IMG/VR virus record: IMGVR_UViG_3300006874_000013
Location: 9,115 to 73,114 of that record
Length of the DNA: 64,000 nt
Origin: a virus
Reading direction: 5' to 3' (one strand)
Shown: in pieces, positions 27,801 through 57,548 of the stretch
How positions within the stretch are numbered: position 1 is the first letter of the stretch
Layout of the letters: every line of letters begins with the position of its first letter
Notes under the pieces: model-generated
The model's database searches: none
Told to the model about the DNA's origin: nothing
The model's input: only the letters and a program-made list of their open reading frames with translations
Position numbers and translations under genes: made by a program

Positions 27801-30800
27801 TAATCACTGTAAATAGGTGCTGGATTGCCGTCTGCATCAAGTTGATCATAGTTATAACCTGTTATCTGATCAACGTATGTGAATGGCTCTGTCCAAAAAC
27901 ATGCAACAAATATATGTTCTGGGCGTAGTAATGTGTTGTCCTCGTCGTTGTCATTTTCATTTGCAACGCCGTCACTGACCACTTCATCAATTTCTAAATA
28001 GTCCCACCACTCTTCATCAAAGAAGAAGTTGTAATCAATTTCTCTATCAACGCCATTGATATCTTCGAATATGCCATCCCAAAATGCTTGATTAGAGTCA
28101 CCTTCTCTTGATCTGCTGTCTGGTTGCAATCCAGTAAGATCTTCTTCTGTATATCTAACACCATTAATTTCGTATAAACGTCTGTCAACGTTAAATACAG
28201 GAGGATTTACAGTAAATCTTCTACTGTATTTGAATCTAGAAATAGGCTTGTCATATGTAAGGTCACTTACATCGGGATAGTCTAATGCATCATGGTCGTC
28301 ACCTGCTTGATAATATCCACTACCGTAACCTAGTGTTTCATTATCTACTGATCCAGGGCCGCCTGATGTAGGTGCCCATTGACCTGGTGCTAGACCTGGT
28401 GTCCATAGAAGGAATTGGCCAAAGCCTGTTTGTGGAACATATATTTCTTCTCCTTCGGCACCACCTGGTAATATACCTCCTGGCTCTCCAATTGGATAAT
28501 CTATATACGTAGATAGTTTGGCCTGTGTTCCACTTGGTAATGCTGTAAAGTTTGCTATTCGATCTGAATTATTTCCACCTGCTAACGCAAAAGGTTCTGG
28601 AATCAATTGAGGGCCTACATAAGCGGCCGGTTCAACTGCTTTTAAGTTTACAATGTTTTTGGTTTTTCTCAATCTAATAGGATCTTTTGGTTCTGTAATC
28701 TTATTATCAGAATCAATTGAAGGTAATATCTCATTTCTCCAATAGTAATCTGTTGTGTCATATTGACCAAAATCGGCATACCTATTGAGAGTAGCATTAA
28801 AATCATGATCTATGTTAGGTGGATTACTCTCATCCAACTTAATATAATAAACATGATTATCTGAATTTTGTACTGCTTGGTAAATCAAAAATACATTTTC
28901 ATTTTTAATTGCACGTAACCTGTATGTAGGAATACTAATAGAATCTGAACCTGCAGTAAACGTCTTTTTATCAAGCATGTTGTATGTTTGTTGTTTTCTA
29001 CCAGGCCTCCAAGATCTACTTGAGTTTGCACTACCAGGAATTTGTTTTAGAACTAAATCCTCATTTATATAATCTAGGTTATTAGTTTGCATGTAGGTAC
29101 CAACATGAAACTCCGGCATTGGAGGAATTCTTGGTTCTTGTTTGTCATTTACAATTACACCATCTTTCACAATAGTTTCTTCGGGCACATACATTTGTAT
29201 TTCGTTATCCCAAATATAATTGATATCATCTTTAACATATCTCAATCCGTACACAGGACCTGATTGTATTGGGCCTTTATAAAAATTAGGATCTATTCTG
29301 GATTCATCCTCTGAACCAATTACCATTGAACCAGTAACAGAATTTTCTTGAATGCTATTTAATGCTTCAGTGCTTAAAACATAAGGCCCGTAATCATGAA
29401 TTAACGGTGCAGGTGTATCTCCTACAACAGGTATCCACGGACTTTTCAACATTGGAATTTTAAGTTGCATAGATGGTAATCCTGTTTTTGGATTAACTGT
29501 TGTCATGCTAGTTGGATCTGTGAAACTTTGTTTTAATTTAATAGTTCTGTTTAGGTCGTTTTCCAATGCCTGTGGATTCAAATAACTAGTTAAATGTTGT
29601 TGACTGCCTTTAAGTGTAACAACACCCTGGTCCACAGTACTTAATTGTGGATATAAAATATTTCTACCCATGTCTCTTTGTACATCAACATCAATACTAA
29701 TTTGTGTATCACTTGGTAATGCATCTGGGTGTATTACACAAACACTTCCGTCCTCTACAATGCTTACAAATCTTGGATTAACAATTTCAGCATTGCTTGA
29801 ATACTTAACAACTGTTTCTGTTAAATCTGTGCTTCTGGTTAATCCTATACTGTTAGTTGAGTTTGCAAAATCAGCATTTATGTTACCAGATTCATATGGC
29901 ACACTGCCATTGATTGTTCCTATTTTGTGATCATAGTAAATCTGTGTTGTAGTTGACTTAGCCCAACGATTATTAATGTATAATTCTTTTGGTGTAACTT
30001 TATTAATGCTGTAAATTTGATTGTATGCTTTTGGACTAGCAAAGTGTACAGCAATGCGTTTTCCATATTCAGCATATAGAGGCGATATACCATGATCACT
30101 TACTGTTTTAATTTTGATTCCTTCAGTGGTAATGGTACCTGACTGGTATCCAAATGTAAACGGAGAAGGAATTGTAATATTGCCATTTTCAGAACTTTTA
30201 ACTCTAAACATACCTTCAAAGTTATTTGCAAATACTCTCACAATATCATTATCGCTTAGTGGAAGATCTGGATTGCGTGTAACTAATTTTGTATTGTTTA
30301 AGTGTCTAACACTTAAGGCATTACCAGCAACACTATTAGGTCTTGTAATGGTAAAACTTCTTTGTGTGACATTGCTAACAATGTGATATCTACCTGTATC
30401 ACTAGAATAATCTTTATATGATTTTATAACAAATGCTAAATTGTTAATGTTACTTACAACATTAGCATCTTCGAGCAAAGGCTCATTTATATGGAGCAAT
30501 GCATTTGTAGGATTTTGTGAATAGCCAATCAGTTTATGAGTTTTTGTAAACAGTGATTGAATTTTAGCAATAGTTGCTGTGTTTGCATCTGATGGTAAAC
30601 CAAATTGTGTGTCTACATTGATGCTACCAGTAACCGTTATACTGGTATTTGCAAAACTACCACTAGAGTCATCAAGAATATTTTGATCAATTTCAGCATT
30701 TCCAAAATTCATATTAGGTGTTGCTGTTGCTGAACCACTGATACTGATTGTTGGTGTGCTAGTAAAGCCTACACCGCCATTCACAACATTTAGTGCTGTA

Positions 30801-33800
30801 ACTTTGGCATTTATTACTGCTTCGCCTGAGAAACCTGTGCCGTCACCGTGTATGGTTACTGCTGGTGCTTGAGTATATCCAGAGCCAATGTTTGTAACAA
30901 CTGCTCTCACATTACCTTGTAGAATTGGTACTGCGGTTGCATTTTGTCCGCCTGTGCCTGTGATTGTCACAGTAGGTAAATTGTTACTTTCATAACCGCT
31001 ACCACGTTCTAAAATATTGATATTTAATATTTGACCAGTTACTGGGTCAACGTCCATGTCTCTGACTTCTGCTGTTGCTGTTGTTCCTGAACTAGGTGGA
31101 GTAATTGTTACTGTTACTGGATTAGTAGCATTGTAATCGCCGTTACTGTCAGGTCCAGTGTACAAATAATCTTGTCCTGGGTCGGTAATTGTAAAGCCCA
31201 CAATTTCAGCATCAAAAATATCTGTACGCACTGTAGCGCCTGTTCCACCACCACCGCCAAGTGACACATTAGCACGTTGGAAATTGTTGTCAGTGATAAT
31301 GTTTACGGTGCTTACATTACCTTCTATGTTTGCTGTAATGGTTGCACCTAAGTCTGGTGTTACTGTAACAGTAGGTGGTTCTGAGTATCCTGAGCCTGCA
31401 CTTGTAATTGTTAAGTTAGCAATACTAGTTGGGTTAAGAGATACATTACCTGATGTTACTGTAGCAACTACAGCGTCACGTTGTACTTTAGTACCAATGT
31501 TATCTATGATTTGTACAGCATCACCGTTACTGATAGTGCCTATAGACCCGGTTAATTGTACGGTGTTTCCATCACTGCTACTTACAATACTAGCACGTAA
31601 TCCAGACAACACTTGGCTTACAACTGGTTCTGTAGATATAATGTCATAACTGTTAAGAGGACCAATAGATTGAATTCTTGCTTCAATCTGCCTTGGTGCC
31701 TCAAAGCCTCTAACTTTGCTGGTTGCTTCTCTAATTATTCTTTCGTTGTTCCATACAACAATGTTATCATTTACATTTGCGTTTTGTAATGACAACACAA
31801 AATCTAAATATTTTCCAGTATTGATTTCGCCAATTTGGTTGCTGTCAATGTATGATATCAAACTGTAATTTGTAAACAGTGTTACATTGCCACTTTCACT
31901 TCTTTCTAGATAGTTTACTTTTTTACTTGCTGTTTCGCTTAATAAATTATCACCTGCAGGAATTAATTCGTATACGTTCCAATCTTCGTTTTCTGATTTA
32001 GCAACATGTATGTAATCATTTTGTTTTGGCTTGAATATAAAATCATCTCTGTATAAATCACTAATACTTTCTACATCAAATGCCAAGAAGTTAACATTCG
32101 CTGAGTTTACATAACCAGCATTACTAATTCTAGGATAGTTACTGTCTGTCATGCCAAATATATCAACGTTGGCTGTAGTTGGCCAAAGTTTGCTGATTTT
32201 ATCACCTTCTGGTTTCTTCAAGAATCTTGTAGCATCGTCAATATCAAATACTAGTATGTCTTTTGACGATGACGGCACAACATCATATGTTCGCTTGATT
32301 CCTACTCTAGGGGCAATACCTTCTTTAGCAGTTACTTTGATTCTCACTTTAGAATTAGGTAGATCACCAACAAAATTTTCAGTGAAAGTTAGTGTAGGTC
32401 TTTCTATAATTTGTATTACAGCATTTTCATCTAACGCATAATAAGTGTCACGTTGTTGTTCGTTTGCATCATAATCTCCTGGTGGATTAACTTTTGCTGT
32501 TAATACAGAATCAGGTAACAGACTAATATCATTAAAAGTAATACTGTTTGTAGCCAATGTAAACACATTACCATTTGAAACTAATGTACCATCTGAAGTG
32601 TATGTGCTAGGCGAATTATAAATTCTCACATTGTTTACAAAAACTTCAACGTATTTGTATTGGCTGTTGTCGCCTTTAACTAAATTAGATGGATCTATGT
32701 TTTGAGCACTATTAAATGCTAAAGATACACTGTTATTAACTAATTCAAATGCATTGTTGTCTGCATCAGCAATATTACTTGTATTAAGTGATGGATATTC
32801 TGCAAGTGTTGTAATTGAAAAATTAGAACCTTCGTCAAATGTCCAGTATATATCTAAAGGATTATTCGGATCAACTCTAGGTACATTTGCATCATCAACT
32901 TCCACAACTATATCATTTGCTGTAGTTGTATAAGTAGGATCTTCGTTTGCTAATGCGCCAACAAGACTAAATTTTTGTTGAGGTTGATATCTAGCATTAG
33001 TTATTCCAATGTTTGCGCCGTCTACCACAGTAAAATCACTACCTGATAAAGTAATAATATCTTTTGCAACTAAATCAATTACAGATGCGTTTGCATCAAG
33101 GTCTGTATAGTTTGTTATGCTACTTGCTGTGACATTAACGTTCAGACTAGTATTACTGTTAATTGCACTTGCAATATTTGCACCAGTAACGTTTGAAGTA
33201 CCGTCTGAATGTGTAACAGTAAGCCTAACAGTGCTTTCAGAAACATGATCTGTGATCTCAAATTCTGTAGAAGTTGTGTCAGTAATGTATGTATTACCAA
33301 TTGCTAATGCTTTGTCAAGCACAGTTTCTACTTCATTGATTAATACATTTGAAGCAACTACTCTTGCGGCTAATGCAGTTGGGTCATCATAACCTGAACC
33401 AGACTCCGTTACAATAATACTGTCTAATTTGTTATTGCTGTTTAACTTAGCAACTGCTGTTGCACGTTTTCCTTTAGGATTACTAGGCATTGATATTTCA
33501 ATCTCTGGTAATCTTTCGTAATTGTATCTTGCTTCGAACACATCTATGCGTTCAATACAATTAGTTGTACTTTGTGGATAATCTAATTTTATTAATTGAC
33601 TATTCTGTTTGAAGTCTGTTTTGTATAATTTAAGTTCAATGTTTTGCTTGTTTTTTGTATTACCAAAATCGCCTACACGTAATGCCCATTCGTCGTATAC
33701 AGTAATGTTGCCTTGGACAATACTGTTACTGTTAGCCAAACGTGTTAAACTTTCCTTAGTACCTTTATTCTGAATCATGCCTTGATAGAATTCAAACTGT

Positions 33801-36800
33801 TGTTCATCAAGCACATCAAGTTCTGTTAGATAACTTTTTTCTTGGTAGCCAAACAATGCTCTACTTTGTTCGTATAGTTGTTTTTCAACAGGCACAAATC
33901 CTAATTCATGATAGCGACCTAAACTTTCCGCCATATTATCTAAGTTTGGTCTAAGTTCGTCACCATCAATTATAAAGCCTTCTGAAAAGAATTTACCTGT
34001 CCAGTTCTTTGTTCTGTTTGCTTTGATCTTGATTCTCTTATGTCTTTGATCATATAAATTATCAAAGATTACATCAGCAAACACAGTTTGATTATCAAAC
34101 ACTAGTGCATGTTCAATTTCTTTTGTGAACAACATGCAACCATAAATTTGTTGTCCTAGCGGAGGAATAATTTCTATTTGAGACCCTTCTCTATTAATTT
34201 GGCATTTACCAGGATCAACAACTGCGCCTGTTTGATCTATGATAGAAAATTGATCTCTGTCAGTCCTATTAATCTTAGCAATAAAACCTCGAGGAGCAGT
34301 AAACAACAAACGTTTTGCAAGTGGTGATAATTCAATGGTATTACCTATTTCCCATTTACCTGTTGTCCAAAACAAAAATTGTTTGCCAGCATACATCCAG
34401 TCATTGACATCATTGATAGCACCGTCAAATTCTCCAAAGTCAAAACCTTCCTGATTATTATAAGCACCTAGGCCTATTAATAAGTCAAAAACTTCTTGTA
34501 TAGTTTCAAATTCTGTATCATAGTATACTCTAACTGGTACTGATTTTCTAACTTGATACAATGCCGCTTCTGCACCATTTTTCTGTGGTAATTTACTTAA
34601 TGTATTCCAATACTGTGGATCAAAATTTGTACCAGATGTAACATTTAGTTTTGCTCTAAAGTAACTTCTATTATACTCAACTATTGTGCCTTTAGGATAA
34701 CTTTGTTCTGGTGCCCATTTAACATGTGGTGCTGGTTCGCCACCAACAGAAATTAACGATTTAGGACTCTTAGGATCAACTGGTAATACATTAAAGTATC
34801 CTCTGTTTTTATCGTACCCTCTTACAATATACCCACCAGCACTTTTTTCAATAATAATGCCGCTATAAAAATTCCTTGATTTATAATTACTACTATGTAG
34901 GTTGACATTTATATTCTCTTGTGGTATAATTAAACTTGTAGCATTACCGTCATTACTATATTGGTCTGTTCTAGCAACCATGGTGTCTTTATCAATGAAG
35001 CCACTCATTCTCTGTGCTAAATTGGTATTCAGGGTTCTCATTTTAGTTGCAAAGTCATCTACAATGCTGAGATTTTGAAACTTTAACCATGTGTATATAA
35101 ATTGTGTATAACCAATTGCTGTTATGAAATTTTTATTTTGATCTAGTTCGCCATGTATATGGAATTCCGTTGGATCATAAAACTTCCAAAACTCTCCAGT
35201 ATTTTTATTGAGAATATATTCTTTGTTACAACTAGGCCTTGTTAAAGAAATTGGATTACTAAAGAAAGTAGCAAACAATCCTGGTTTGGATAATAGCAGT
35301 GCCTCCGACATTGCAAAAGGAAATTCTTCTGTGTTCCTCCACGCATACTCTGCTGGACTGCAATCACCAAATGACCATTTACCAGAAATACCGGTTGTGC
35401 TAACCACTGAAGTATTTAATGTGCTTCTTATATAATAATCAGCATCTTGATTTATATACCCATTATTTTTGTTATTGTCTGTTTCATCTATAACTACTTC
35501 TAATATAGCTCTGTAGCCATCACCTTGTATAGTTGCTAATGCTTCAGTGTAACCTGAGCCGGAATTTGTGATTGTAATTGCTTGTATAGCACCATCAACA
35601 ATAGTTGCAGTAGCAGTAGCACCACTTCCGTTGCCAGTAATTGCAACTGTTGCGTTAGTGTACTGCCCACCTTTGTTTTTGATTTTTATTTCTTTTATTA
35701 AACCTGTATCAGGAGCATTTGAATAAAAACAATTTTGATAAACATTATTACCTGAAGTTCCTTGCCCTGAACTTCCGCCTACATGGAAAGGGAAAACAGG
35801 TTTGTTGTTTTCATCTACTGTGGCAACATAAAATCTAATAGGTGTATTCGGTGATTCTGGTGTACGTGCATATCTAACATTATATTCATCAACATACTCG
35901 TCACCACTGCCGGCAGTTGGTTCCCAGTCTTCTATAAATTGACCAGTGTAAGCACCACCTGGACCAGATTGTCTTGTACCTGATCTCACTGCCCATTTAG
36001 ATTTAATTCTCACAATACTGTTTGAGTCTATACCTTGAGCACCACCGTATCCATATGGACCATAAATAGGCAGACCATCTAATGCCCAACCTACTATTGG
36101 GGAGTGTTCAGTTGTACTCCACTCAGTTAATCCTGCTACACGTGGACTAAAGACATGATAGTGTAAAATGCCGTCCTCAACACTTGCATGACCTGAATCC
36201 GGATCATGATTTTTTGTAACAGTTGAGTAATGCCATTCACCTTCGCCTTTCCAACTTTCTTCTGATTTAATATTGTATACCGGTATACCATTTACTGCCA
36301 CAGCAACAGGACCCTTGCCTTGCTTTTGTGAATTGCCTGTAGGAGGTATATTTGCTAAATCTCTTTTTGGAATAGTGTAACTTACAGCATCAAATTCAAT
36401 TGACTCGCCATCTAGTGTGGCGTGTCCAGAATGTTCGTAGTGTAACCCGTCTAGTGTATGATTAGGTATAGTATGACTTTGTACATACAAATTACCGCTA
36501 TCTAGTGAAACTGATACACCGTCGTTTCTAGCAAATGATGTTACTTGAATATCTGTAAGGGCATTTACAAATTCGTTATTCCATTGCTTTGTTAGTGTTG
36601 TGGTATCTGTAGAAATAATATCAGCAGGTGCAATCAAGTCGCCGTTGCTGTCAACTGGAATTACTTCATGCAGTCCAATTCTTCTAAAGGGGTTGTTCTT
36701 CTTGAACGCATCATTGTGAATATTTGCTCTAGGGCCTTTTCTTATTATGCCTTGCTCTAAATCATTCCATAATTTTTCATTGGTAGGAGAATAATCTATA

Positions 36801-39800
36801 ATAGGACTTACTTTGTTTGTATCGCCCGAAGCATACAAAGCATATTCGCTGTCCCACCATATAGGCTTTTCTGTAAAGCCTAACATTTCCCATGGATGAG
36901 TATTTGGTTTAATGGTATCGTAGTAATACAAATAGAAGCCTTTCCAATGCCCTGGTATTAAACCTGTATTTGCATAGTTCCATGTAAATTTATTATTTTC
37001 ATCATAGAATTCATTGACTGTACCATCGAGATTATTTCTCTGCAACCAACTAGAGTATGAACTTATCATCAAGTCATTGAACTCTTTATACTCTAATGAT
37101 GTTTTTCTAAATTCGCCATTTTGTGAACTAAACACACTATGTTCTGGCATGCTGTTATTAGTTCTAAACTCTGCTTTAGCACTGTTAAATATTCTCTTTT
37201 CAAATTCTAATAACAAGTCATCACGTAAGTCTCCCTTGATAGGTGTCTCACTTCCGTCATGGCCTATAATAACCTTTAAGGGTTGAGAGAAACTCTTGTC
37301 TATTGTAATTTCAGGTTTGAACAGTGGATATAATCCCATTGTGCTTGGAGTAGGAGGACATTGAGCACTATCTCTTTCTGCATCGTATAACTTAAATAAA
37401 ACAGTATCACCAGAACTCAAATTAACACTGTCTTGTATTGTAATGGTTAAAGGTTCAAACGAACTTATTACATAATCGTGATCAACAGTTAATAATTTTT
37501 GATTTAGAAATACCAATAAACTGTGTTCAAGTTTGTCTAGGTCTGCATCATATACACTTGTAAATGTCTTATCTGCAGGCGTACTTGGAATGCCAACTAA
37601 AAATTCTTCTTCTTTGTAATTGTCACCATATGGCAAAATATATGTTCTATTAAATACATCTCTGCCTACTTTGTAACTTTGTGTATTTCGAATAACTTGT
37701 TCTAAAATATCACTGACAGCAATACCATCTGTATCTTTGGTATCATAGTATTTGTTAATTTCATTTTTGATTCTGTTTTTGAATTTCACATACTCAGCTC
37801 TATTAAATTTCAAAGCATCTATTAAGTTGTGTGGTTGATCATCAAGTAAAAATGAACCTAGTATAACATTTTGATCAGTGTTTACAATTTTGTTTGCAAA
37901 TGTATCACTTTTAACAATACTATCAGAATTATTTGAACCAAATTTTAATCCAGAGAAACCTTCTTGGTTGCTCATGTAATCACTAAAGTGTTCCATATAT
38001 TGTGGCTGACTTATACCAACAATATCTTGTTTTAGTACATTGTTTTTCCAACCAATTGGTAATTCGTATTTAGAAATATTTTGATCGTCAATTAATCCTA
38101 CTTCTGAATTTACACTGATTTCTAAAATATCATTTGCTGAATATGGAATAGAATCTAGTCGTATAAAACCTTTGTTGGTGCTAAAGTATTGAAAGCCTGT
38201 GATTTCATCACCGTTAAGTGTAACTGTAATTTCGTAGCCGCTACTAAATTTAGGATTGCTTTTTGGTTCAGCACCAATATAAAAATCTTTTATTTGTCTA
38301 TCAACAACTGCTTGTGGTAAAGAATATGTAGAAACAATTTTTTGTACATTAGGTTCTGAAACATGTTTCCAATGTGCATGATATTCTACAACTTTTTTGT
38401 TTAACTTGTAAAATTTGTAACCACTGATGTTTTTGCTTGAGTTGCCACCAAACGGAATAAAATTATAGTTACCTGTTTTTTGAAAATTTTCAAACAGTAT
38501 TTCTGAACTAGATTTGAATTGCTTGTATACTAACGGAAACCCAAGCTCTATATCAGAAACCAAACTTACACTTGTGTTACTTTCCCCGGTAGGAATGCTA
38601 GTTGCATAACCAAAGATTTTGTTTCCTGTAAAGTTGTTCTGAGGATATAAATCACTATCACCTAAATATTGTCCTTTGTTATCATAGAGATTAAATAAAG
38701 GCTCTTGATTAATTTTTGATTTGTGCTGTGCTTGTACCCAACCTACACTAGTCCAGACATATTCGGAACCAAGATATTTTGAACCTGAATCTACGCAAAC
38801 AACATCACCAACTACTGGCGTCATTGGTATAAAATTATCATCGCCGTCAACTGCGCCTGCTGGATTATTTAATGCTGGAACTCTAGATAGTGTAACAAAT
38901 GCTTGTGCGTTTGAGCCTTGATAGATGTATTGTGAAACTTCCTTATCTTCATTAGGAAAGATCATATATGCATTTGATACATCTACTGAATCAACTAATT
39001 GTCCTGTTTTAAGTCCCTTTACGTCAGCAATTGAGAAATCAGCCACAGAAACATTTACAGTGTAAAGTAATTTCTCTCCATGCTTGTATAATTCTAATTC
39101 TTTATCAAACTCTATAATAGGTCTATTTGCACGTTTGGTTTTTTCTGGTATTGAATCGCCAGCATCTCTGAAATTTTCTATGTGGTACCAATGATTAACT
39201 CTACTCCAAGCGTTTTTATTAGTAGCACCACGCTCCTGAATTAAGTAATCTTTTTCCCAATCTACTGATGTATCAAGTCTATAAGATACAGGATTGTTTG
39301 ATGTTATTTCAGTTAATTTTATTGCATCGCCAACACCAGATACAATAAATGTTTTGCTAGTTTCTGTTGCTGGAATGACATAGTTGCCTGAGAACTCTAC
39401 CTTCATTCCGTTTCTCATAGACTTACCATTAGGCAATGTATAAGTTTTTTTACCAAGTATGTCTAAGTCTATATCTATATAATCAGATGCTGTACCAGTT
39501 ATTGTGATTACCGATGGTCCTTCTGGTACCCAATAATATTCTTGGTAATTAATAAATTTGTCAACATTTATAGGAGGTAAAAATGTACTATATCTATCTG
39601 AAAATAATTTATTATGGTTTTTTGTCTGTACACCATAACTTTTTAATAAGTCTATAAACTCATCATAAAAAATTAAATTTTCTGGCTTGTTAGTATCTGA
39701 TGTTTTTGTACTAACTGTAGGCGATAAACTATAGAAACGTTTTGACGCAGTAGGGTGTATAATATATGCACCTTCTACATCATGGTCTTCGCCACGTTGG

Positions 39801-39931
39801 CTACCAATAAACCCTTTGACTAATTCAACATTAGCCTTGCTGAATAATTGCTCAACAGTGTTATCAAAGAAATTTTTGATAGCATTAGTTTGATGTATAA
39901 CTGGTAACTTTTTATAAATCTTATCAGCCAT
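24815..39931 (-). CDS. Giant baseplate wedge-like protein (5038 aa) with YHYH, GSGY-type repeats, PA14/GLEYA-like and C-terminal Hint domains
   Basis: Coupled to gp6 (TAATG); PPINVDKFINYQEYYW and NAWSRVNHWYH N-terminal motifs; position equivalent to T4 gp7; domain motifs visible in the translation. Confidence 0.8.
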   Translation of the reverse strand: MADKIYKKLPVIHQTNAIKNFFDNTVEQLFSKANVELVKGFIGSQRGEDHDVEGAYIIHPTASKRFYSLSPTVSTKTSDTNKPENLIFYDEFIDLLKSYGVQTKNHNKLFSDRYSTFLPPINVDKFINYQEYYWVPEGPSVITITGTASDYIDIDLDILGKKTYTLPNGKSMRNGMKVEFSGNYVIPATETSKTFIVSGVGDAIKLTEITSNNPVSYRLDTSVDWEKDYLIQERGATNKNAWSRVNHWYHIENFRDAGDSIPEKTKRANRPIIEFDKELELYKHGEKLLYTVNVSVADFSIADVKGLKTGQLVDSVDVSNAYMIFPNEDKEVSQYIYQGSNAQAFVTLSRVPALNNPAGAVDGDDNFIPMTPVVGDVVCVDSGSKYLGSEYVWTSVGWVQAQHKSKINQEPLFNLYDNKGQYLGDSDLYPQNNFTGNKIFGYATSIPTGESNTSVSLVSDIELGFPLVYKQFKSSSEILFENFQKTGNYNFIPFGGNSSKNISGYKFYKLNKKVVEYHAHWKHVSEPNVQKIVSTYSLPQAVVDRQIKDFYIGAEPKSNPKFSSGYEITVTLNGDEITGFQYFSTNKGFIRLDSIPYSANDILEISVNSEVGLIDDQNISKYELPIGWKNNVLKQDIVGISQPQYMEHFSDYMSNQEGFSGLKFGSNNSDSIVKSDTFANKIVNTDQNVILGSFLLDDQPHNLIDALKFNRAEYVKFKNRIKNEINKYYDTKDTDGIAVSDILEQVIRNTQSYKVGRDVFNRTYILPYGDNYKEEEFLVGIPSTPADKTFTSVYDADLDKLEHSLLVFLNQKLLTVDHDYVISSFEPLTITIQDSVNLSSGDTVLFKLYDAERDSAQCPPTPSTMGLYPLFKPEITIDKSFSQPLKVIIGHDGSETPIKGDLRDDLLLEFEKRIFNSAKAEFRTNNSMPEHSVFSSQNGEFRKTSLEYKEFNDLMISSYSSWLQRNNLDGTVNEFYDENNKFTWNYANTGLIPGHWKGFYLYYYDTIKPNTHPWEMLGFTEKPIWWDSEYALYASGDTNKVSPIIDYSPTNEKLWNDLEQGIIRKGPRANIHNDAFKKNNPFRRIGLHEVIPVDSNGDLIAPADIISTDTTTLTKQWNNEFVNALTDIQVTSFARNDGVSVSLDSGNLYVQSHTIPNHTLDGLHYEHSGHATLDGESIEFDAVSYTIPKRDLANIPPTGNSQKQGKGPVAVAVNGIPVYNIKSEESWKGEGEWHYSTVTKNHDPDSGHASVEDGILHYHVFSPRVAGLTEWSTTEHSPIVGWALDGLPIYGPYGYGGAQGIDSNSIVRIKSKWAVRSGTRQSGPGGAYTGQFIEDWEPTAGSGDEYVDEYNVRYARTPESPNTPIRFYVATVDENNKPVFPFHVGGSSGQGTSGNNVYQNCFYSNAPDTGLIKEIKIKNKGGQYTNATVAITGNGSGATATATIVDGAIQAITITNSGSGYTEALATIQGDGYRAILEVVIDETDNNKNNGYINQDADYYIRSTLNTSVVSTTGISGKWSFGDCSPAEYAWRNTEEFPFAMSEALLLSKPGLFATFFSNPISLTRPSCNKEYILNKNTGEFWKFYDPTEFHIHGELDQNKNFITAIGYTQFIYTWLKFQNLSIVDDFATKMRTLNTNLAQRMSGFIDKDTMVARTDQYSNDGNATSLIIPQENINVNLHSSNYKSRNFYSGIIIEKSAGGYIVRGYDKNRGYFNVLPVDPKSPKSLISVGGEPAPHVKWAPEQSYPKGTIVEYNRSYFRAKLNVTSGTNFDPQYWNTLSKLPQKNGAEAALYQVRKSVPVRVYYDTEFETIQEVFDLLIGLGAYNNQEGFDFGEFDGAINDVNDWMYAGKQFLFWTTGKWEIGNTIELSPLAKRLLFTAPRGFIAKINRTDRDQFSIIDQTGAVVDPGKCQINREGSQIEIIPPLGQQIYGCMLFTKEIEHALVFDNQTVFADVIFDNLYDQRHKRIKIKANRTKNWTGKFFSEGFIIDGDELRPNLDNMAESLGRYHELGFVPVEKQLYEQSRALFGYQEKSYLTELDVLDEQQFEFYQGMIQNKGTKESLTRLANSNSIVQGNITVYDEWALRVGDFGNTKNKQNIELKLYKTDFKQNSQLIKLDYPQSTTNCIERIDVFEARYNYERLPEIEISMPSNPKGKRATAVAKLNSNNKLDSIIVTESGSGYDDPTALAARVVASNVLINEVETVLDKALAIGNTYITDTTSTEFEITDHVSESTVRLTVTHSDGTSNVTGANIASAINSNTSLNVNVTASSITNYTDLDANASVIDLVAKDIITLSGSDFTVVDGANIGITNARYQPQQKFSLVGALANEDPTYTTTANDIVVEVDDANVPRVDPNNPLDIYWTFDEGSNFSITTLAEYPSLNTSNIADADNNAFELVNNSVSLAFNSAQNIDPSNLVKGDNSQYKYVEVFVNNVRIYNSPSTYTSDGTLVSNGNVFTLATNSITFNDISLLPDSVLTAKVNPPGDYDANEQQRDTYYALDENAVIQIIERPTLTFTENFVGDLPNSKVRIKVTAKEGIAPRVGIKRTYDVVPSSSKDILVFDIDDATRFLKKPEGDKISKLWPTTANVDIFGMTDSNYPRISNAGYVNSANVNFLAFDVESISDLYRDDFIFKPKQNDYIHVAKSENEDWNVYELIPAGDNLLSETASKKVNYLERSESGNVTLFTNYSLISYIDSNQIGEINTGKYLDFVLSLQNANVNDNIVVWNNERIIREATSKVRGFEAPRQIEARIQSIGPLNSYDIISTEPVVSQVLSGLRASIVSSSDGNTVQLTGSIGTISNGDAVQIIDNIGTKVQRDAVVATVTSGNVSLNPTSIANLTITSAGSGYSEPPTVTVTPDLGATITANIEGNVSTVNIITDNNFQRANVSLGGGGGTGATVRTDIFDAEIVGFTITDPGQDYLYTGPDSNGDYNATNPVTVTITPPSSGTTATAEVRDMDVDPVTGQILNINILERGSGYESNNLPTVTITGTGGQNATAVPILQGNVRAVVTNIGSGYTQAPAVTIHGDGTGFSGEAVINAKVTALNVVNGGVGFTSTPTISISGSATATPNMNFGNAEIDQNILDDSSGSFANTSITVTGSINVDTQFGLPSDANTATIAKIQSLFTKTHKLIGYSQNPTNALLHINEPLLEDANVVSNINNLAFVIKSYKDYSSDTGRYHIVSNVTQRSFTITRPNSVAGNALSVRHLNNTKLVTRNPDLPLSDNDIVRVFANNFEGMFRVKSSENGNITIPSPFTFGYQSGTITTEGIKIKTVSDHGISPLYAEYGKRIAVHFASPKAYNQIYSINKVTPKELYINNRWAKSTTTQIYYDHKIGTINGSVPYESGNINADFANSTNSIGLTRSTDLTETVVKYSSNAEIVNPRFVSIVEDGSVCVIHPDALPSDTQISIDVDVQRDMGRNILYPQLSTVDQGVVTLKGSQQHLTSYLNPQALENDLNRTIKLKQSFTDPTSMTTVNPKTGLPSMQLKIPMLKSPWIPVVGDTPAPLIHDYGPYVLSTEALNSIQENSVTGSMVIGSEDESRIDPNFYKGPIQSGPVYGLRYVKDDINYIWDNEIQMYVPEETIVKDGVIVNDKQEPRIPPMPEFHVGTYMQTNNLDYINEDLVLKQIPGSANSSRSWRPGRKQQTYNMLDKKTFTAGSDSISIPTYRLRAIKNENVFLIYQAVQNSDNHVYYIKLDESNPPNIDHDFNATLNRYADFGQYDTTDYYWRNEILPSIDSDNKITEPKDPIRLRKTKNIVNLKAVEPAAYVGPQLIPEPFALAGGNNSDRIANFTALPSGTQAKLSTYIDYPIGEPGGILPGGAEGEEIYVPQTGFGQFLLWTPGLAPGQWAPTSGGPGSVDNETLGYGSGYYQAGDDHDALDYPDVSDLTYDKPISRFKYSRRFTVNPPVFNVDRRLYEINGVRYTEEDLTGLQPDSRSREGDSNQAFWDGIFEDINGVDREIDYNFFFDEEWWDYLEIDEVVSDGVANENDNDEDNTLLRPEHIFVACFWTEPFTYVDQITGYNYDQLDADGNPAPIYSDYDGTVVRVKYIRLTELPPNAITRRLIPDTGWAGKGWNNVTVDYAINQSGAILTPDDVDSYIDQFDPVETGSASTGDDDTLVVDLPALTRSATPIPVAGSTQNYSLSNTRLLSSGELEQQLGFQSVPTVEGGAPVNTLAKITQAPGPCLAIETPDDPTPPGTTAPGVCTEKETQYFFEEMNDGLEGKSNPTGSVNTTDAGRSFTTQLMLNTLTNCQAFFDSNQYGFGGDMQFFFSKTVEIATSGSIDVFLNSHVENDTIKAKPWGNATGYVLWQSKQPLFGSSKVMTNHLDLGAWLADPDTRLLKTTMNNANDIPTRNGDQISRYGVDQNLTSGANRYTQVDAIFDTNDKGLHTYDNVENISNNETRLYNDLTFTRLISELNDDDISVKWSDWDSDLATEMTGKGFNENNEFGFNGIGYIRALNVDCNKGKYITLWMVPSLSDTAGNTLRDVNGSYANDYSHAYNYFEAADDTADGPSIIRNQAVIRFVGEKPDDYVPPGPSCDDTNRPSRAYRNGAVLKGWKALRDDNNSAQDAKHGEDWWGSKREVDNVYWPYHDLYISPSYFKSFSNSNIWKPWRTRTAGSAPIVNRTVKSFHKYNSGQGQHSYELKGYMFAPHTGVYYFSGWGDDQLIVYLSSGPPEPDLDIWNAYPNYISGGFKNYARIGVPDDGSGPSPSGGDAAPGTFKEWFTDDGFNADNGYNYISTANVAHNGCWTDRLESSKENVANGPAHNWLMKTGWTTTDETKANWWNQWSQHRKAVYLEANKFYFIRLMFSNRGGPGHYGLMWTCNRAQGGNISGYPIFGGFSCEDDAPPSDGTPPGQNSGGGGGCFTGHMKVTMADGTQKEIKDVVKGDAVKSYDNNTNEIVNATVEELMVPRTCNIYELTLDDGTVIETTADHPFRTADGKWANIDPNFVQEDMQYVTGLDSTEQAEKLEIGRELHGLVDNAVVTNIVNTGKTDTVYHLCDVGEYHNYFVEDMCVHNSATLEDGNEKQKR
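24857..25318 (-). other. Hint (intein-like) domain, 154 aa, without homing endonuclease
   Basis: Block A CFTGHMKVTMADG, block B TTADHPF, terminal HNYFVEDMCVHN followed by Ser. Confidence 0.92.
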
Positions 39932-44780: not shown

Positions 44781-44785
44781 ACAAG

Positions 44786-44817
44786 TATTTATCTAATTTA
44801 TTAAAACTAGTTTTAAT
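44786..44817 (-). promoter_or_regulatory. Late promoter GATAAATA with upstream perfect 18-bp palindrome ATTAAAACTAGTTTTAAT
   Basis: Read directly: palindrome 44800-44817, 6-nt spacer, octamer 44786-44793, 5 nt to ATG. Confidence 0.7.
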
Positions 44818-44829
44818 TACCAAAAACAC

Positions 44830-44858
44830 TTGACAATACTTCTAGAGTGTGCTTAAAT
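44830..44858 (+). promoter_or_regulatory. Sigma70-like early promoter
   Basis: TTGACA-17 nt-TTAAAT upstream of ORF 44914. Confidence 0.55.
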
Positions 44859-44913
44859 ACATACAAGCACTGCAAAGTGTGAAACCCTAAACCCACAGAA
44901 AGAGGATGCTTAA

Positions 44914-45159
44914 ATGCGTCGGTTAGCAAAAAAGTTCAGAGATATTTGGGCTGTGGCTGAGCAACGTAACAAACAAGAGTCGGGCAGATTCCATCAAATT
45001 TATGAAACCAAAAAAGGCTTTGTAGAGATGGGCATTTACGACTACAAAACCAAAAAGTTTGTTACGTTCAACACTGTTAATCTAGTAGGCAACTACAGAT
45101 ATGATGGTGTTGACTTTCCAACTGAATTTTCGGAGATGGAAAATTTAGTGCTGTCATAA
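44914..45159 (+). CDS. Hypothetical protein (81 aa), independent transcription unit
   Basis: GAGGA RBS, own promoter and terminator. Confidence 0.8.
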   Translation: MRRLAKKFRDIWAVAEQRNKQESGRFHQIYETKKGFVEMGIYDYKTKKFVTFNTVNLVGNYRYDGVDFPTEFSEMENLVLS

Positions 45160-45160
45160 T

Positions 45161-45190
45161 AAAAAAGAGGGGTTTGACCCCTCTTTTTTT
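45161..45190. terminator. Bidirectional rho-independent terminator
   Basis: AAAAAAGAGGGG-tttga-CCCCTCTTTTTTT. Confidence 0.9.
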
Positions 45191-45211
45191 ATAAAAGTGT
45201 AAATATTTACT

Positions 45212-45385
45212 ATGTCAAATCATGAAGACTCTAATGCAGAAATCTATCGTCGACAAATTTTAGCACTTGAGGATACTATAAAGTTATTGAAAAGAAATCT
45301 ATTGGAAGAAAGCAAATTGAAATATGATGCCTACAAACGCATCGGAGAATTGACTTCTACTAGATCTTCGTTGAATCAAAACTAA
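45212..45385 (+). CDS. Small coiled-coil protein (57 aa, MSNHEDSNAEIYRRQILALEDTIKLLKRNLLEESKLKYDAYKRIGEL...)
   Basis: Manual translation; TGTAAATA 6 nt upstream; heptad pattern. Confidence 0.6.
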   Translation: MSNHEDSNAEIYRRQILALEDTIKLLKRNLLEESKLKYDAYKRIGELTSTRSSLNQN

Positions 45386-53910: not shown

Positions 53911-55680
53911 ATGCTGAAAATTAAAAATGTGAGTGCCAAAAACTTTATGAGTATTGGCGCACAGACGCAGGCAGTTAATTTTGGAGATTGCCAACTTACA
54001 TTAGTTTTAGGACATAATTTGGACTTGGGTGGTGACGGTAGCAGAAATGGTACTGGTAAAACCACTATCATTAATGCACTCAGTTATGCACTGTATGGCG
54101 ATGCTCTCACAAACATTCGCAAAGACAATCTCATAAACAAAACAAACGGTAAGCAAATGATTGTTACTGTTGACTTTGAAATTGACGACGTGTCATATAG
54201 AATTGAACGTGGGCGTAGACCTAACACACTGAAGTTTTTTGTTGACGGGACTGAACCTGGTGATGGTGAACAACAAGGCGATAGCAGAGAAACACAAAAA
54301 GAAATTGAAAAAGTAATTGGCTTCCCACATGAAATGTTCAAGCAACTTATTGCACTGAACACTTACACGGAACCTTTCCTCAGTCTCAAAGCAAACGATC
54401 AACGTGCAATGATTGAGCAACTGCTTGGTATCACAGAGTTGTCGCAAAAAGCAGAATTACTTAAAGAGTTATTAAAGCAAACAAAAGACAATATTAAAGA
54501 AGAAGAAATTAAAATTACTGCTATCAAGAACAGCAACGAAAGAATAGAAAAAAATATTACAGAGATCGAAAGTCGCAGTAGAGCATGGGATAAAACACAT
54601 CAAGATAAAGTTGTAGATCTTAAAAATGTTGTTGAAACTATGCAAGAAATTGACATTGATGTTGAACTAGAAAAACACAAACACAATGCAGAAGTTAAAG
54701 AACAAACTGATTCGTTAAAAACATTAGAAAACGAATTGGAAAGAAACAGCACATCTCTTACTCGCAGTAATAAAAAAATACAAGAACTAAAAGATAATAT
54801 TGTAAAAGCAGAAGAAGGTGTATGTCCTGCATGTGAACAAAGTACAGCACACTTAGATACACACGAAGAATACACACAAGATTTACGTGACAAGTTAGAA
54901 GCAGAAAACGAATACAATGCTGAAGTAGAATCACGAAGTAACGAACTTAGTGATGCTATAAAAACATTTGACAAGATAGGGCAAGAAGAAGACACATTCT
55001 ATAACACATTAGAAAGTGCATTAGAGCACAAACACAATTACGAAAACTTAATTACACAACTTGAAGAAAAACTTGCTGACGTCAATCCGTACATAGAGCA
55101 AATAGAATCTCTCAAAGAATCTGGTTTGCAAGAGATTAGTTTTGACAATATAAACGAGTTAACGTTCTTAAAAGAGCATCAAGAATTCTTGTATCAATTG
55201 CTTACAAGCAAGGACAGTTTCATACGTAAACGTATTATTGATCAGAACATAGCATACTTAAATCACCGTTTAGCATGGTACTTGGACAAGATAGGATTGC
55301 CACATGATGTGAGATTTGCAAGTGATTTAGGCGTTGAAATTACAGAATACGGGCGTGACTTAGACTTTGATAATCTAAGCAGAGGCGAACGTAATCGACT
55401 TATTTTGAGCCTAAGTTGGGCATTTAGAGACATATATGAGAGTCTAAATAGGCCTATGAATTTGCTGTGTATTGACGAATTAATAGACAGCGGCATGGAT
55501 TCTATGGGTGTAGAGAACAGTCTTGCTATACTTAAAAAAATGAACAGAGAGCAAGGTAAAAACATCATGTTGATCTCGCACAAAGAAGAACTAGTTGGTC
55601 GTGTAAACAATGTACTCACAGTAATCAAGGAAGGCGGATTTACATCATACAACACGGACACAGAGTATGTCGACCAGTGA
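53911..55680 (+). CDS. gp46: Recombination ATPase subunit (Rad50/SbcC-like)
   Basis: Walker A NGTGKTT, coiled coil with CPAC zinc hook, LSRGE signature, Walker B LCIDE, ISH. Confidence 0.95.
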   Translation: MLKIKNVSAKNFMSIGAQTQAVNFGDCQLTLVLGHNLDLGGDGSRNGTGKTTIINALSYALYGDALTNIRKDNLINKTNGKQMIVTVDFEIDDVSYRIERGRRPNTLKFFVDGTEPGDGEQQGDSRETQKEIEKVIGFPHEMFKQLIALNTYTEPFLSLKANDQRAMIEQLLGITELSQKAELLKELLKQTKDNIKEEEIKITAIKNSNERIEKNITEIESRSRAWDKTHQDKVVDLKNVVETMQEIDIDVELEKHKHNAEVKEQTDSLKTLENELERNSTSLTRSNKKIQELKDNIVKAEEGVCPACEQSTAHLDTHEEYTQDLRDKLEAENEYNAEVESRSNELSDAIKTFDKIGQEEDTFYNTLESALEHKHNYENLITQLEEKLADVNPYIEQIESLKESGLQEISFDNINELTFLKEHQEFLYQLLTSKDSFIRKRIIDQNIAYLNHRLAWYLDKIGLPHDVRFASDLGVEITEYGRDLDFDNLSRGERNRLILSLSWAFRDIYESLNRPMNLLCIDELIDSGMDSMGVENSLAILKKMNREQGKNIMLISHKEELVGRVNNVLTVIKEGGFTSYNTDTEYVDQ

Positions 55681-56341
55681 GTTTAGACAGGCTCCAACTA
55701 GTCCAAGACTAACCATTTATTTTGACGACAATCATAACGGTGATGGATTAGCAACACTCGAAGATTACAAAGCAATATTCAATAAGCATTTTTTAGGAAC
55801 ACAATTTCAAAATGTCATGGAATGGTGTTGTGGTCCTGCATTTGTAGGGTTTACATTTTTAGCAGAAGGTATTTTTAGAAACTTAACTTGTGCTGACATT
55901 GAAGCAGATGTAGAACGCAGTATAAATGAAACATTAAAACACAAGCAAAATTACAATCACAGAGTGAGTTTTATTCAAAGCGATTGCTTTGATAATATAG
56001 AACAGAAGTTTGATCTAATAGTAGGTAATCCCCCTCACTTTATAGATGACAGTTCCGGTGAATATCAAACCTTTTTAGATAGGAATATTGATCACAAAAC
56101 TAAATATGATTGCGAACGAACAGCAATCGACTGGGACTGGCAATCACATAAAAAATTCTTTCAGCAAGTACGGCAACACCTCAATCCAGGCGGATATGTA
56201 ATACTTAATGAAAATGCACAAGGTGCAACCGAAGAAACATTTGAACAAATGATTGCTGATTCTGGTTTGCAAAAACATGCGGTTTATCGTAGCAAGAATC
56301 CTTCTAGACCATTTTACTGGTACATGATATTGAAGGGCTGA
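55667..56341 (+). CDS. Class I SAM-dependent methyltransferase (HemK/MTS-like)
   Basis: Motif I MEWCCGPAFVG, ADIE, SDCF, FDLIVGNPPHF, HLNPGG. Confidence 0.8.
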   Translation: MSTSEFRQAPTSPRLTIYFDDNHNGDGLATLEDYKAIFNKHFLGTQFQNVMEWCCGPAFVGFTFLAEGIFRNLTCADIEADVERSINETLKHKQNYNHRVSFIQSDCFDNIEQKFDLIVGNPPHFIDDSSGEYQTFLDRNIDHKTKYDCERTAIDWDWQSHKKFFQQVRQHLNPGGYVILNENAQGATEETFEQMIADSGLQKHAVYRSKNPSRPFYWYMILKG

Positions 56342-56352
56342 TAAATCAATGT

Positions 56353-56778
56353 ATGTCTTATTGGATCTATAAAGGAAAACAAATTGACGAGCTACCAGAA
56401 GGGTGCGAAGCATTTGTATACTTGATCACAAACAAGAAAAATGGCAAAAAATACATAGGCAAAAAACTAGCAAAATTCAAAACCACTAAACCACCACTTA
56501 AAGGCAAAAAAAGAAAACGCAAAGGCACCAAAGAAAGTGATTGGCGAGAATACTGGGGCAGTTCAGATCATCTCAAAGCAGATGTAGAAAAGTATGGCGA
56601 AGAAAATTTTATTCGTGAAATACTGCATGTTTGTCCAAGTAGAGGTGTAGCCAGTTACTTAGAAGCACAGGAACAATTTGAACGCAAGGTATTGCTCACT
56701 GATGATTACTATAATGGAATTATCAACGTAAGAGTAGGAGGTTCAAAAATCTTACGTGAAGCACTGAACAAGGACTAA
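56353..56778 (+). CDS. GIY-YIG family nuclease (141 aa, single domain)
   Basis: AFVYLITNKKNGKKYIGKK...YWGSS...FIREIL...YLEAQEQF...YYN. Confidence 0.8.
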   Translation: MSYWIYKGKQIDELPEGCEAFVYLITNKKNGKKYIGKKLAKFKTTKPPLKGKKRKRKGTKESDWREYWGSSDHLKADVEKYGEENFIREILHVCPSRGVASYLEAQEQFERKVLLTDDYYNGIINVRVGGSKILREALNKD

Positions 56779-57282
56779 CTATAACTTGCAGGCACACATG
56801 GCATTCACAGACACCAAGTCTTTCACATAATTTATAAACAGCACACAAGGTTAGCAGGCCGGATAGTAATACTGCTGTGGAAAAAGTATCCGAAAAGTAG
56901 GAACACACGCAACACATTGAGACACACCCATGGTGTTAAGTATTGATGTAGATTGAATGCTGTCAATCAAGAACCACATAGCTCTTAAAAACTGTAACGA
57001 GTAGGAACGAGGTTACAGGTAATACACTGAATGTATTTTATAATACACTTAATGTATGATGTCGACGTAGGTTGGGAAAGGTCAGAGCCCATAGAGCAGT
57101 GAAAACACCTACTTCCAAGTCAGGCCGACGCGACTCACGTGAAGCCAATTTTTTTTTGATGGAACCGTAACAGGTTCCGTCTGACCTCAACATCTACGTG
57201 AAACTGAAATGTTCTTTCTTCGAAAGAAATTTCGAACAAATGAATGAGTGAAGTGAAACGAACGAATGAATGCAGTTAGAAA
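56779..57282 (+). ncRNA. Candidate large structured non-coding RNA (family not recognised; boundaries and strand approximate)
   Basis: No credible ORF in a gene-dense genome; about ten predicted stems and an 8-bp loop/distal pseudoknot pairing found by eye. Confidence 0.55.
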
Positions 57283-57298
57283 AGGCCTTACAGGCCTA
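57280..57298 (-). terminator. Probable terminator of the gp26-like transcript
   Basis: Minus strand AGGCCT-gta-AGGCCT-TTT just after the stop at 57306. Confidence 0.5.
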
Positions 57299-57305
57299 AT
57301 AAGTA

Positions 57306-57548
57306 TTAAAGTTCTTCTTGAACACCTTTGCCGGATTTGAGTCTATTATAATTATTGATGGTTTTTACAGCAAGGTTTCTTTCACGTGCGGACATGAGTT
57401 GTGCATCTGACCAAGAAATACTACCGCCTGAATACACAGCAATTTCGATGAGGGATTTTTCTAGTAGGTCTGCTTCTGAGCGTAATCTATTAAGTAACTT
57501 AACGATTTCCTCAGATGTTTGTGTTGCTAAGAAGCGGTGAAAAAATTT
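57306..57548 (-). CDS. -1 frameshift extension (78 aa, gp51/gpGT-like) of the gp26-like chaperone
   Basis: Open -1 frame FHRFLATQTSEEIVKLLNRL...SISWSDAQLMSARER...QEEL*, entered at slippery A-AAT-TTT-TTC, with no start codon near its 5' end. Confidence 0.7.
   Translation of the reverse strand, partial: KFFHRFLATQTSEEIVKLLNRLRSEADLLEKSLIEIAVYSGGSISWSDAQLMSARERNLAVKTINNYNRLKSGKGVQEEL

Follow-up and report, generated by a model that had tools for sequence, protein, structure and literature searches.

A stretch of viral DNA of 64,000 nucleotides (IMG/VR record IMGVR_UViG_3300006874_000013, positions 9,115 to 73,114; the whole stretch is called the window below) contains, directly behind the gene of a small GIY-YIG nuclease, a gap at positions 56779-57305 that is packed with possible base pairings. 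Does this gap encode an RNA, and is such an RNA a partner of the neighbouring nuclease or something else? An earlier note, made from the sequence alone, had proposed an undescribed phage non-coding RNA (ncRNA), possibly a partner or guide scaffold of the GIY-YIG protein, and the sequence elements that it listed were all found in place. Comparison with related phages indicates that positions ~56838-57300 (+ strand) are very probably the gene of a structured, previously uncatalogued ncRNA of ~460 nt, both as to its existence and as to its fold. The proposal of an undescribed phage ncRNA is borne out, the element being conserved, non-coding, covarying and of + polarity, with no match in Rfam. The gap had also been called the longest in the window without a credible open reading frame (ORF), which is true only if a small conserved ORF at 57306-57437 (- strand) is ignored. 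Other gaps without an ORF of at least 90 aa lie at 845-1488 (~640 nt) and 44781-45359 (~580 nt), and neither matched Rfam or the RNA model R1.

A conserved non-coding RNA in T4-like phages

The stretch 56779-57305 is conserved in more than 130 uncultured phage contigs. When 38 related loci were fetched with gp26, the baseplate hub gene, and their gaps were compared by blastn and nhmmer, the gap was kept in most of them, with up to 84% identity in loci L002 and L005; the gp26 identity was 54-86%. In L038 and L039 neither program found a match to the RNA in the gap. A context-free DNA pattern derived from the most conserved block retrieved at least 119 further stretches in viral contigs, and a second DNA pattern retrieved 35. 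After removal of duplicates, 110 full-length copies remained, which form 97 clusters at 92% identity. A single copy of the RNA was found in each of the contigs searched, four of 104-120 kb and L078 with 8.6 kb. Its carriers are uncultured giant T4-like myophages of lakes and seas, with genomes of ~350 kb as deduced from CheckV-type completeness values (20-34% in related contigs 73-138 kb long, 86% in another, of 299,910 bp).

No conserved ORF was found across 29 unique homologous gaps. Pairwise gap runs were divisible by three in only 82 of 653 cases in the alignment A1 (91 sequences) and in 79 of 334 in A3, and 80 of the 91 cores have stop codons in all three + frames. A semi-open frame ('GKVRA..') running across the core was considered as a hidden protein gene and rejected, as +1/+2 indels in relatives break it. 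On the + strand, G·U pairs exceed A·C pairs by 276:27 in A3 and by 197:3 in A1, which argues that the + strand is the RNA and the strand under selection. In agreement with this polarity, a canonical + strand terminator follows the RNA in L078. Against dinucleotide-shuffled controls, a comparison proposed in the earlier note, the single sequence folds better, but only modestly (z -2.2 on the + strand, with 3 of 100 shuffles folding as well, and z -3.6 on the - strand). Single-sequence folding alone is therefore weak support, while the comparative evidence is strong: both conservation and covariation, as the note had anticipated, were found in relatives.

The whole window gave no match at the gathering threshold with the 4227 models of Rfam 15. 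Scans of 1.4 kb and 0.5 kb with E up to 10 returned only chance-level rows (E 2.6-8.6, at most 16 bits), and nothing consistent appeared in 11 homologue loci, so the novelty claimed for the RNA is not refuted by this Infernal-type check. The earlier statement that hallmarks of tRNA, transfer-messenger RNA (tmRNA), RNase P and group I/II introns are lacking agrees with the absence of ARAGORN genes in the window and of any such Rfam match. The Rfam tmRNA clan and glnA likewise had no match in the window; these are relevant because Melnitz-like phages are reported, in the available text of PMC9004378, to carry a two-piece tmRNA with a glutamine riboswitch. In a comparison with the profile only, the group I intron model RF00028 gave no match, and a group I intron with a homing gene was rejected: no gene is interrupted, the nuclease gene follows a complete gp46 or methyltransferase gene, and the downstream genes are convergent. 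RNase P, whose CR-I element the core calls to mind, was dropped without a formal test, since the topology differs and Rfam gives no match. The RNA core had no blastn match at E up to 10 among 50,697 isolate phage records. No description of the RNA was found in the literature, where supplementary files could list such motifs.

A bacterial origin was also considered and set aside. Among the 80 genome-contig pattern matches listed, only L163 was real (148.7 bits); L216, at 20.2 bits, was treated as chance. L163 is a 72,803-bp contig in a metagenome-assembled genome of Crocinitomicaceae with the order gp47-gp46-nuclease-RNA-gp26, and its RNA core does not differ from the core of L079. Either a phage contig was placed in the wrong bin, or L163 hints that the host belongs to the Bacteroidota.

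In a tree of the 160-nt RNA cores, which is of low resolution, L078 and L086 stand beside the window's clade and more divergent T4-like members stand outside, with supports of 0.66-0.78. The RNA of the window is nearer to those of distantly related phages than to some close ones. These placements hint at horizontal exchange, at low supports.

Architecture of the RNA and its duplicated segment

The features of the locus are as follows (window coordinates).

56353..56778, +, gene of a SegE-type GIY-YIG nuclease, 141 aa, single domain, directly upstream of the RNA (Pfam PF19835, E 4.9e-35)
56779..56835, +, leader with short repeated motifs, CATGGCA-like and CAGACACCAAGTC-like, in 1-3 copies among relatives
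56838..56968, +, 5' domain, closed by an H-type pseudoknot, with three further helices inside
56838-43 with 56958-63, +, helix 1, whose 3' strand is the loop of the GATTG/CAATC hairpin
56852-57 with 56872-77, +, helix 2, with an invariant GGCC in its loop
56886-90 with 56900-04, +, helix 3, plus GTG 56877-79 with CAC 56906-08
56915-23 with 56940-48, +, helix 4
56951-55 with 56964-68, +, helix 5, the local hairpin GATTG/CAATC
56992-57018, +, central hairpin (helix 6, 56992-96 with 57014-18), conserved loop ..TAGGAACGAG..
57019..57060, +, variable hairpin, conserved in position and free in length and sequence (alignments, RNAalifold pairs)
57060..57092, +, core block GTCGACGTAGGTTGGGAAAGGTCAGAGCCCA, near-invariant over 32 nt and the most conserved part of the RNA (91 sequences, A1); used as search pattern
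57064..57115, +, hairpin P-a: 57067-72 with 57107-12, outer pairs 57064-65 with 57114-15, inner TGGG 57073-76 with CCCA 57088-91
57080-84 (GGTCA) with 57182-86 (TGACC), +, loop-to-tail pseudoknot, plausible and unproven
57133..57144, +, X1, first direct-repeat copy, ACTC + ACGTGAA + G (X1 proper 57137-43)
57149..57157, +, T-run, 9 T after a weak hairpin holding X1, terminator-like in the window's clade only
57158..57181, +, hairpin P-b, GATGGAACC with GGTTCCGTC
57192..57203, +, X2, second direct-repeat copy, ATCT + ACGTGAA + A (X2 proper 57196-202)
57211..57300, +, 3' tail: small hairpin at ~57212-57228, purine-rich GAATGA-like stretch, terminal hairpin
57284-87 with 57293-96, +, terminal hairpin, GGCC with GGCC
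57306..57437, -, small conserved ORF of 43 aa, the right bound of the RNA and not part of it (tblastn)

The 5' domain carries the clearest covariation. For 48 diverse sequences of this domain, RNAalifold gave 30 pairs, 20 of them with compensatory double changes; the hairpin GATTG/CAATC was then added to the model, and 35 pairs were counted. Over these, 96.4% of the cells are paired compared with 79.3% in column shuffles (none of 500 shuffles reached 96.4%), double changes occur at 25 of the 35 pairs, and the covariation score is 0.534 as against 0.218 for shuffled columns. Pairing fell to 28-52% when the partners were slid by 1-3 columns. The pseudoknot between 56838-43 and 56958-63, which the earlier note had missed, is strongly supported by these comparisons of sequence.

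About seven of the eleven pairings proposed in that note find support in the relatives, the loop pseudoknot does in part, and three do not. GATTGA/TCAATC and TAGCAG/CTGCTG covary. CTGTAAC/GTTACAG is supported, helix 6 having double changes at 4 of its 5 pairs, and ACACC/GGTGT becomes ACTCC/GGAGT in L007 and L014. In hairpin P-a, GTAGGT/ACCTAC is paired in 100% of the 91 sequences with two pairs double-changed, one pair being UA in 83 and CG in 8, and the inner TGGG/CCCA is paired in 96.7% of the same set. The P-b pairing GGAACC/GGTTCC extends to 9 bp and is 98.7% paired, with four pairs double-changed. On the other hand, TGTGG/CCACA is only 63.6% paired among 66 sequences, GTG 56877-79 with CAC 56906-08 taking its place at 98.5%; the long-range GTAGAT/ATCTAC is 80.6% paired, with A·C at one pair in 42 of 66; and TCACGT/ACGTGA is 63.4% paired among the 66, its strands being direct repeats that happen to be palindromic in the window phage only. 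RNAalifold chose yet another long-range pairing, GTAGGT/ATCTAC, which was rejected because the local partner ACCTAC fits better at the covarying position.

For the predicted pairing between AGGTCAGA in the P-a loop and TCTGACCT in the tail, five pairs are kept by one-sided, wobble-compatible changes, but no double change occurs, and in 72 of 86 sequences the outer A-T does not pair. A loop-to-tail pseudoknot of 57080-84 with 57182-86 is plausible on this basis. A further contact, E1:E2, joins GGAA 57004-07 in the loop of the central hairpin to TTCC 57113-16; 65 of 66 sequences retain it, one clade shows two compensatory changes, and the contact competes with the outer two pairs of P-a. The 16-bp stem noted at 57022-57057 exists as a hairpin but is variable, relatives having other hairpins of 4 to ~25 bp there. 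In place of the T-run, most other lineages have the 3' strand of a stem of the TCTCG/CGAGA type that closes the structure. Covariation is also seen in the terminal hairpin (GGCC/GGCC, GACAC/GTGTC, GGTCC/GGACC), and with its T-rich tail on the - strand side it may also terminate the convergent gp26 operon.

Several further features of the fold were observed. An insert of ~70 nt in helix 4 of L060, L102 and L140 carries a GGTTCGAATC-like (T-loop-like) sequence. Helix 2 has the invariant, self-complementary GGCC (56858-61) in its apical loop, and just 5' of P-a lies the palindrome GTCGAC (57061-66); both are candidates that could mediate dimerisation between RNA molecules.

The 3' half of the RNA contains one feature that stands out. 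X is a lineage-specific 7-10-mer present as two direct copies ~59 nt apart. X1 and X2 share at least 6 bases in 84 of 89 cluster representatives and all 7 in 25 of 25 further loci, and at least 13 different X 7-mers occur across lineages; the repeated sequence is ATCATCAAGT in L078 and TCTTGAT in the divergent group of L030. By mutual information, the top partner of X1 columns 57137, 57141 and 57143 is the matching X2 column, which ranks second for columns 57140 and 57144. X1 and X2 are the ends of two tandem pseudo-repeat units, GGAAC..GTTCC-GTCT-N15-X, that share E, GTCT and X but not the spacer. In one clade E1/E3 and E2/E4 have changed together, from GGAAC to GAAGC.

Inside the RNA, no column consistently held a complement of X (10 of 61 at most). 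The 4 kb on either side contained no perfect complement, and none common to X1 and X2 was found. A third copy of X at 56750-61, in the 3' end of the nuclease gene, and a complement at 57380-88, in the small ORF, were discarded, neither recurring in relatives. The duplicated, co-evolving X is not explained by ordinary base pairing. Two like copies with no internal complement would fit one external partner recognised twice, alternative folds, two sites for one protein, or a terminally redundant template. Templates with terminal redundancy are known from telomerase RNA and the DRT2 ncRNA, which are associated with a reverse transcriptase. A reverse-transcriptase template was rejected here, since five phage contigs, including the 86%-complete genome of 299,910 bp, contained no RVT_1 match.

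Linkage to the nuclease gene, genomic setting and transcription

The protein encoded upstream is, from its sequence, a member of the GIY-YIG nuclease superfamily. Residues Y23, Y34, G36, R88, E89 and N121 are invariant in 24 homologues, and we take them to have catalytic roles. The AF2 model (pLDDT 89) gave as best Foldseek rows 1LN0 and 1MK0, the catalytic domain of I-TevI, with probabilities of 0.97 and 0.95 but E of ~0.1; a sequence search of the PDB with the nuclease returned nothing relevant. The protein consists of the catalytic domain only, with a Lys/Arg-rich loop. Its identity is 64-80% in most loci, where gp46 has ~53% and gp26 ~30%. The closest isolate for the nuclease is Methylophilales phage Melnitz (72%), and for gp26 the closest isolates are jumbo phages (33-37%).

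At 125 of 136 pattern-hit loci, the GIY-YIG gene precedes the RNA on the same strand. In the first locus set, collected by the RNA motif alone, the nuclease is directly upstream in 103 of 109 unique loci; four of the remaining six are chance pattern matches that the covariance model rejects. It is upstream in 22 of the 27 loci of the second set, and the other five are cut off upstream. The two genes even overlap: in 35 of 66 loci the last codons and the stop codon of the nuclease gene also contain the conserved 5' strand of helix 1. The leader is missing in 35 of 66 relatives, where the RNA begins on the nuclease stop codon. The tight linkage is real and needs an explanation.

Nevertheless, RNA and nuclease each occur alone, and the suggestion of a partner or guide scaffold of the GIY-YIG protein is not upheld as an obligate pairing. 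In L078 and L086, which are non-T4 contigs, a full-length RNA lies in a 680-nt gap upstream of the small and large terminase genes, with no GIY-YIG gene. In Melnitz the nuclease stands beside ribonucleotide reductase genes, and no RNA was detected in its downstream region by nhmmer or the pattern. The nuclease of L038 and L039 is inverted beside the small ORF and has no RNA match. These nucleases without RNA are 72-78% identical and have the same basic loop; nucleases with and without the RNA agree in length, motifs and Lys/Arg-rich loop. The occurrence of each without the other suggests genetic linkage rather than an obligate ribonucleoprotein. X was also examined as a guide: it varies by lineage but is internal and duplicated, and no terminal guide segment was identified.

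The order of genes in the window is gp55 (late sigma factor), gp47, gp46, methyltransferase, nuclease (+), the RNA gap, the 43-aa ORF (-), gp26 (-) and a 1042-aa protein. The methyltransferase gene (55667-56341, +) occurs only in the window, L002 and L005 among the loci examined; elsewhere the nuclease gene comes directly after gp46. The 43-aa ORF was found behind gp26 at all 38 gp26 loci, with 40-81% identity, at a fixed distance and with no family match, and probably belongs to the baseplate operon as a genuine small gene. The border between the RNA and the small ORF or gp26 is a hot spot of insertion, with extra ORFs in L003, L007, L008, L025, L026 and L030-L035. These inserts include a 57-59-aa ORF with an N-terminal L(T/S)GC motif (lipoprotein-signal-like, labelled by eye), a 238-aa ORF with a DxDGT start (HAD-phosphatase-like, by eye), a 423-427-aa ORF with CxxCH, and ORFs of 343, 156 and 142 aa. 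The structural region of the window contains giant ORFs of 5038 aa (24815-39931, -) and 3304 aa (14855-24769, -), and others of 1026-1577 aa.

Parts of the stretch were found in 14 RNA-library runs. Four metatranscriptome runs, each from a different study, contain contigs that span the nuclease gene and the RNA as far as ~57086-57118, and three of these contigs (56624-57086, 56372-57018 and 56750-56971) bridge the stop codon; contigs of the cores of relatives are also present in those runs. No contig of the four runs covered 57119-57200 or most of 57300-57450. Breaks in the contigs fall at the edges of the invariant core, the points at which strains branch, and say nothing about RNA ends. As to the transcript that the earlier note proposed to look for in metatranscriptomes, the assembled contigs show presence in RNA libraries only; strand, ends and abundance cannot be read from them. 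In the leader, a sigma-70-like match (TTCACA-16-CATAAT, 56804-56831) would place a transcription start near 56838. As the note had stated, no terminator-like site was found between the nuclease gene and the RNA. The late promoter motif GATAAATC (xATAAATx), which the note had assigned to the nuclease gene, proved not to be general, being found upstream of that gene in only 4 of 84 loci.

Possible roles of the RNA

We can only infer the biochemical role of the RNA. The leading explanation, about evenly poised in our judgement, is an independent trans-acting ncRNA gene that is linked to a homing-type nuclease and whose two X copies are recognition elements. The RNA would either arise from the 3' portion of the nuclease mRNA or be transcribed from a start at its own 5' helix, and would fold into a compact scaffold acting in trans during infection. 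Its two tandem pseudo-repeat arms (GGAAC..GTTCC-GTCT-N15-X) would display identical X copies; X would be the working end, with one external partner recognised twice, and the simplest mode of recognition would be pairing of X with another nucleic acid. Genetic linkage would account for the near-constant place of the RNA behind the GIY-YIG gene, a homing-type nuclease co-mobilising or targeting a conserved RNA gene. Such an arrangement has a parallel in phage T4, where SegB, a free-standing GIY-YIG nuclease gene of the Seg type, stands beside the conserved tRNA cluster. By analogy, the Seg-type nuclease gene here would likewise adjoin a highly conserved gene of a structured RNA, and parking of this kind would explain the linkage without a physical complex; unlike SegB, the window protein is only a 141-aa nuclease domain.

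Several observations weigh against this explanation. The homing site is hypothetical, and the nuclease has no separate DNA-binding domain. Linkage at 125 of 136 loci, on the same strand and with stop-codon overlap, is also expected of a dedicated RNA cofactor or a 3' regulatory element of the nuclease, and the nuclease-free cases L078 and L086 make up one lineage. The metatranscriptome contigs indicate presence only, with DNA carry-over possible, and promoter-like matches were not above shuffles (7 versus 8.6), which bears on the start site. The parallel change of E1-E4 is a single clade-level event. An external partner of X is proposed only from the failure to find a complement inside the RNA, and no candidate target has come to light.

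A dedicated cofactor of the nuclease, made on the same transcript and bound by the small basic protein as a guide or specificity module or as an inhibitor or antitoxin-like partner, appears rather unlikely. It would account for the same-strand adjacency (125 of 136), for an RNA that begins at or across the nuclease stop codon in 35 of 66 loci, for the lack of a terminator-like site between the two, for the RNA-library contigs that bridge the junction, and for a protein that is a nuclease domain only with a Lys/Arg-rich loop; X is lineage-specific and in this respect guide-like. However, L078 and L086 have the RNA without the nuclease, Melnitz and L038/L039 have the nuclease without the RNA (72-78% identity, same basic loop), and X occurs in two copies inside the RNA and not at an end, with no matching target found. 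The RNA might instead act in cis at the 3' end of the nuclease mRNA, as a switch with two states or a conditional terminator that uses E1/E3, E2/E4 and X1/X2 as alternative partners and would set mRNA stability or read-through into the convergent baseplate genes. We regard this as improbable. The parallel change of the duplicated strands, the position directly 3' of the gene and, in the window's clade, X1 in a weak hairpin followed by a T-run are in its favour, but ~460 nt with an invariant core far exceeds what such an element needs, the T-run is missing in most lineages, X1 and X2 have no common complement, and in L078 the RNA stands alone with its own terminator.

A ribozyme, self-processing or of another kind, with the invariant pseudoknotted core as active site and, for example, self-release from the nuclease mRNA at its 5' end, is more doubtful still. 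An invariant 32-nt block within nested helices and pseudoknots, and a 5' boundary that coincides with the end of the ORF, would suit this idea; yet no self-cleaving ribozyme, RNase P or intron of Rfam matched at E up to 10, the RNA interrupts no gene, and the RNA-library contigs give no ends. Least probable, by far, is a signal at the DNA level (replication origin, packaging or recombination site) with incidental pairings. The element does lie where the replication/recombination module meets the baseplate module, a place of frequent gene insertion, it stands just upstream of the terminase genes in L078 and L086, and it contains direct repeats, but compensatory changes keep its pairs, and the asymmetry of G·U over A·C (276:27 and 197:3), not expected for sites in double-stranded DNA, makes a purely DNA-level signal unlikely.

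Known systems were compared with the RNA. As in HEARO/omega-RNA systems (IscB, TnpB), a large pseudoknotted RNA lies here beside a small nuclease gene of mobile-element type. The TnpB reRNA overlaps the end of its ORF, and the phage RNA does likewise. The nuclease, however, is of the GIY-YIG and not the RuvC/HNH type, and Rfam gives no match; an obligate pairing of the omega-RNA/HEARO type is not supported, since RNA and nuclease do not always occur together. The td intron of T4 with I-TevI, the nearest solved fold, also combines a GIY-YIG gene with a structured RNA, whereas no gene is interrupted by the phage RNA, no 5' half precedes the ORF, and Rfam has no matching intron. The two-piece tmRNA of Melnitz-like phages (PMC9004378, in the text available) is, like the present RNA, a structured RNA of related aquatic T4-like phages; in contrast, the window has no tmRNA (ARAGORN) or tmRNA/glnA (Rfam), and Melnitz is without this RNA. 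Type III toxin-antitoxin RNAs of the ToxI kind consist of tandem near-identical repeats upstream of the toxin gene, with a terminator between. Such an RNA was rejected, as the phage RNA is downstream of the gene and has only two partial pseudo-repeats with no common spacer. GOLLD and ROOL resemble the RNA in being phage-borne and several hundred nt long, with many helices, pseudoknots and variable peripheral domains; the phage RNA is smaller, has no Rfam match and has another host range (aquatic giant T4-like phages). GOLLD, ROOL and OLE form homo-oligomers, according to the available text of PMC12286853.

A bolder reading is of low probability: the RNA could be the nucleic-acid-recognising half of a new phage machine in which X pairs with a target, or X...X could be a terminally redundant template, or the whole an RNA-only oligomer like ROOL/GOLLD. 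If the scaffold did bind a protein (the GIY-YIG nuclease where present, another enzyme elsewhere) and the two X copies paired with a target, this would be the first RNA-directed system of GIY-YIG type.

To our knowledge, large, intricately folded RNAs with near-invariant cores are rare, and nearly all known ones are ribozymes, ribonucleoprotein scaffolds or guide RNAs. For RNA biologists, the locus defines a new family, for which an alignment and a covariance model are at hand. Gene callers will mis-annotate the stretch as small hypothetical ORFs. For phage biology, the RNA is a new conserved element at the border of the replication and baseplate modules.

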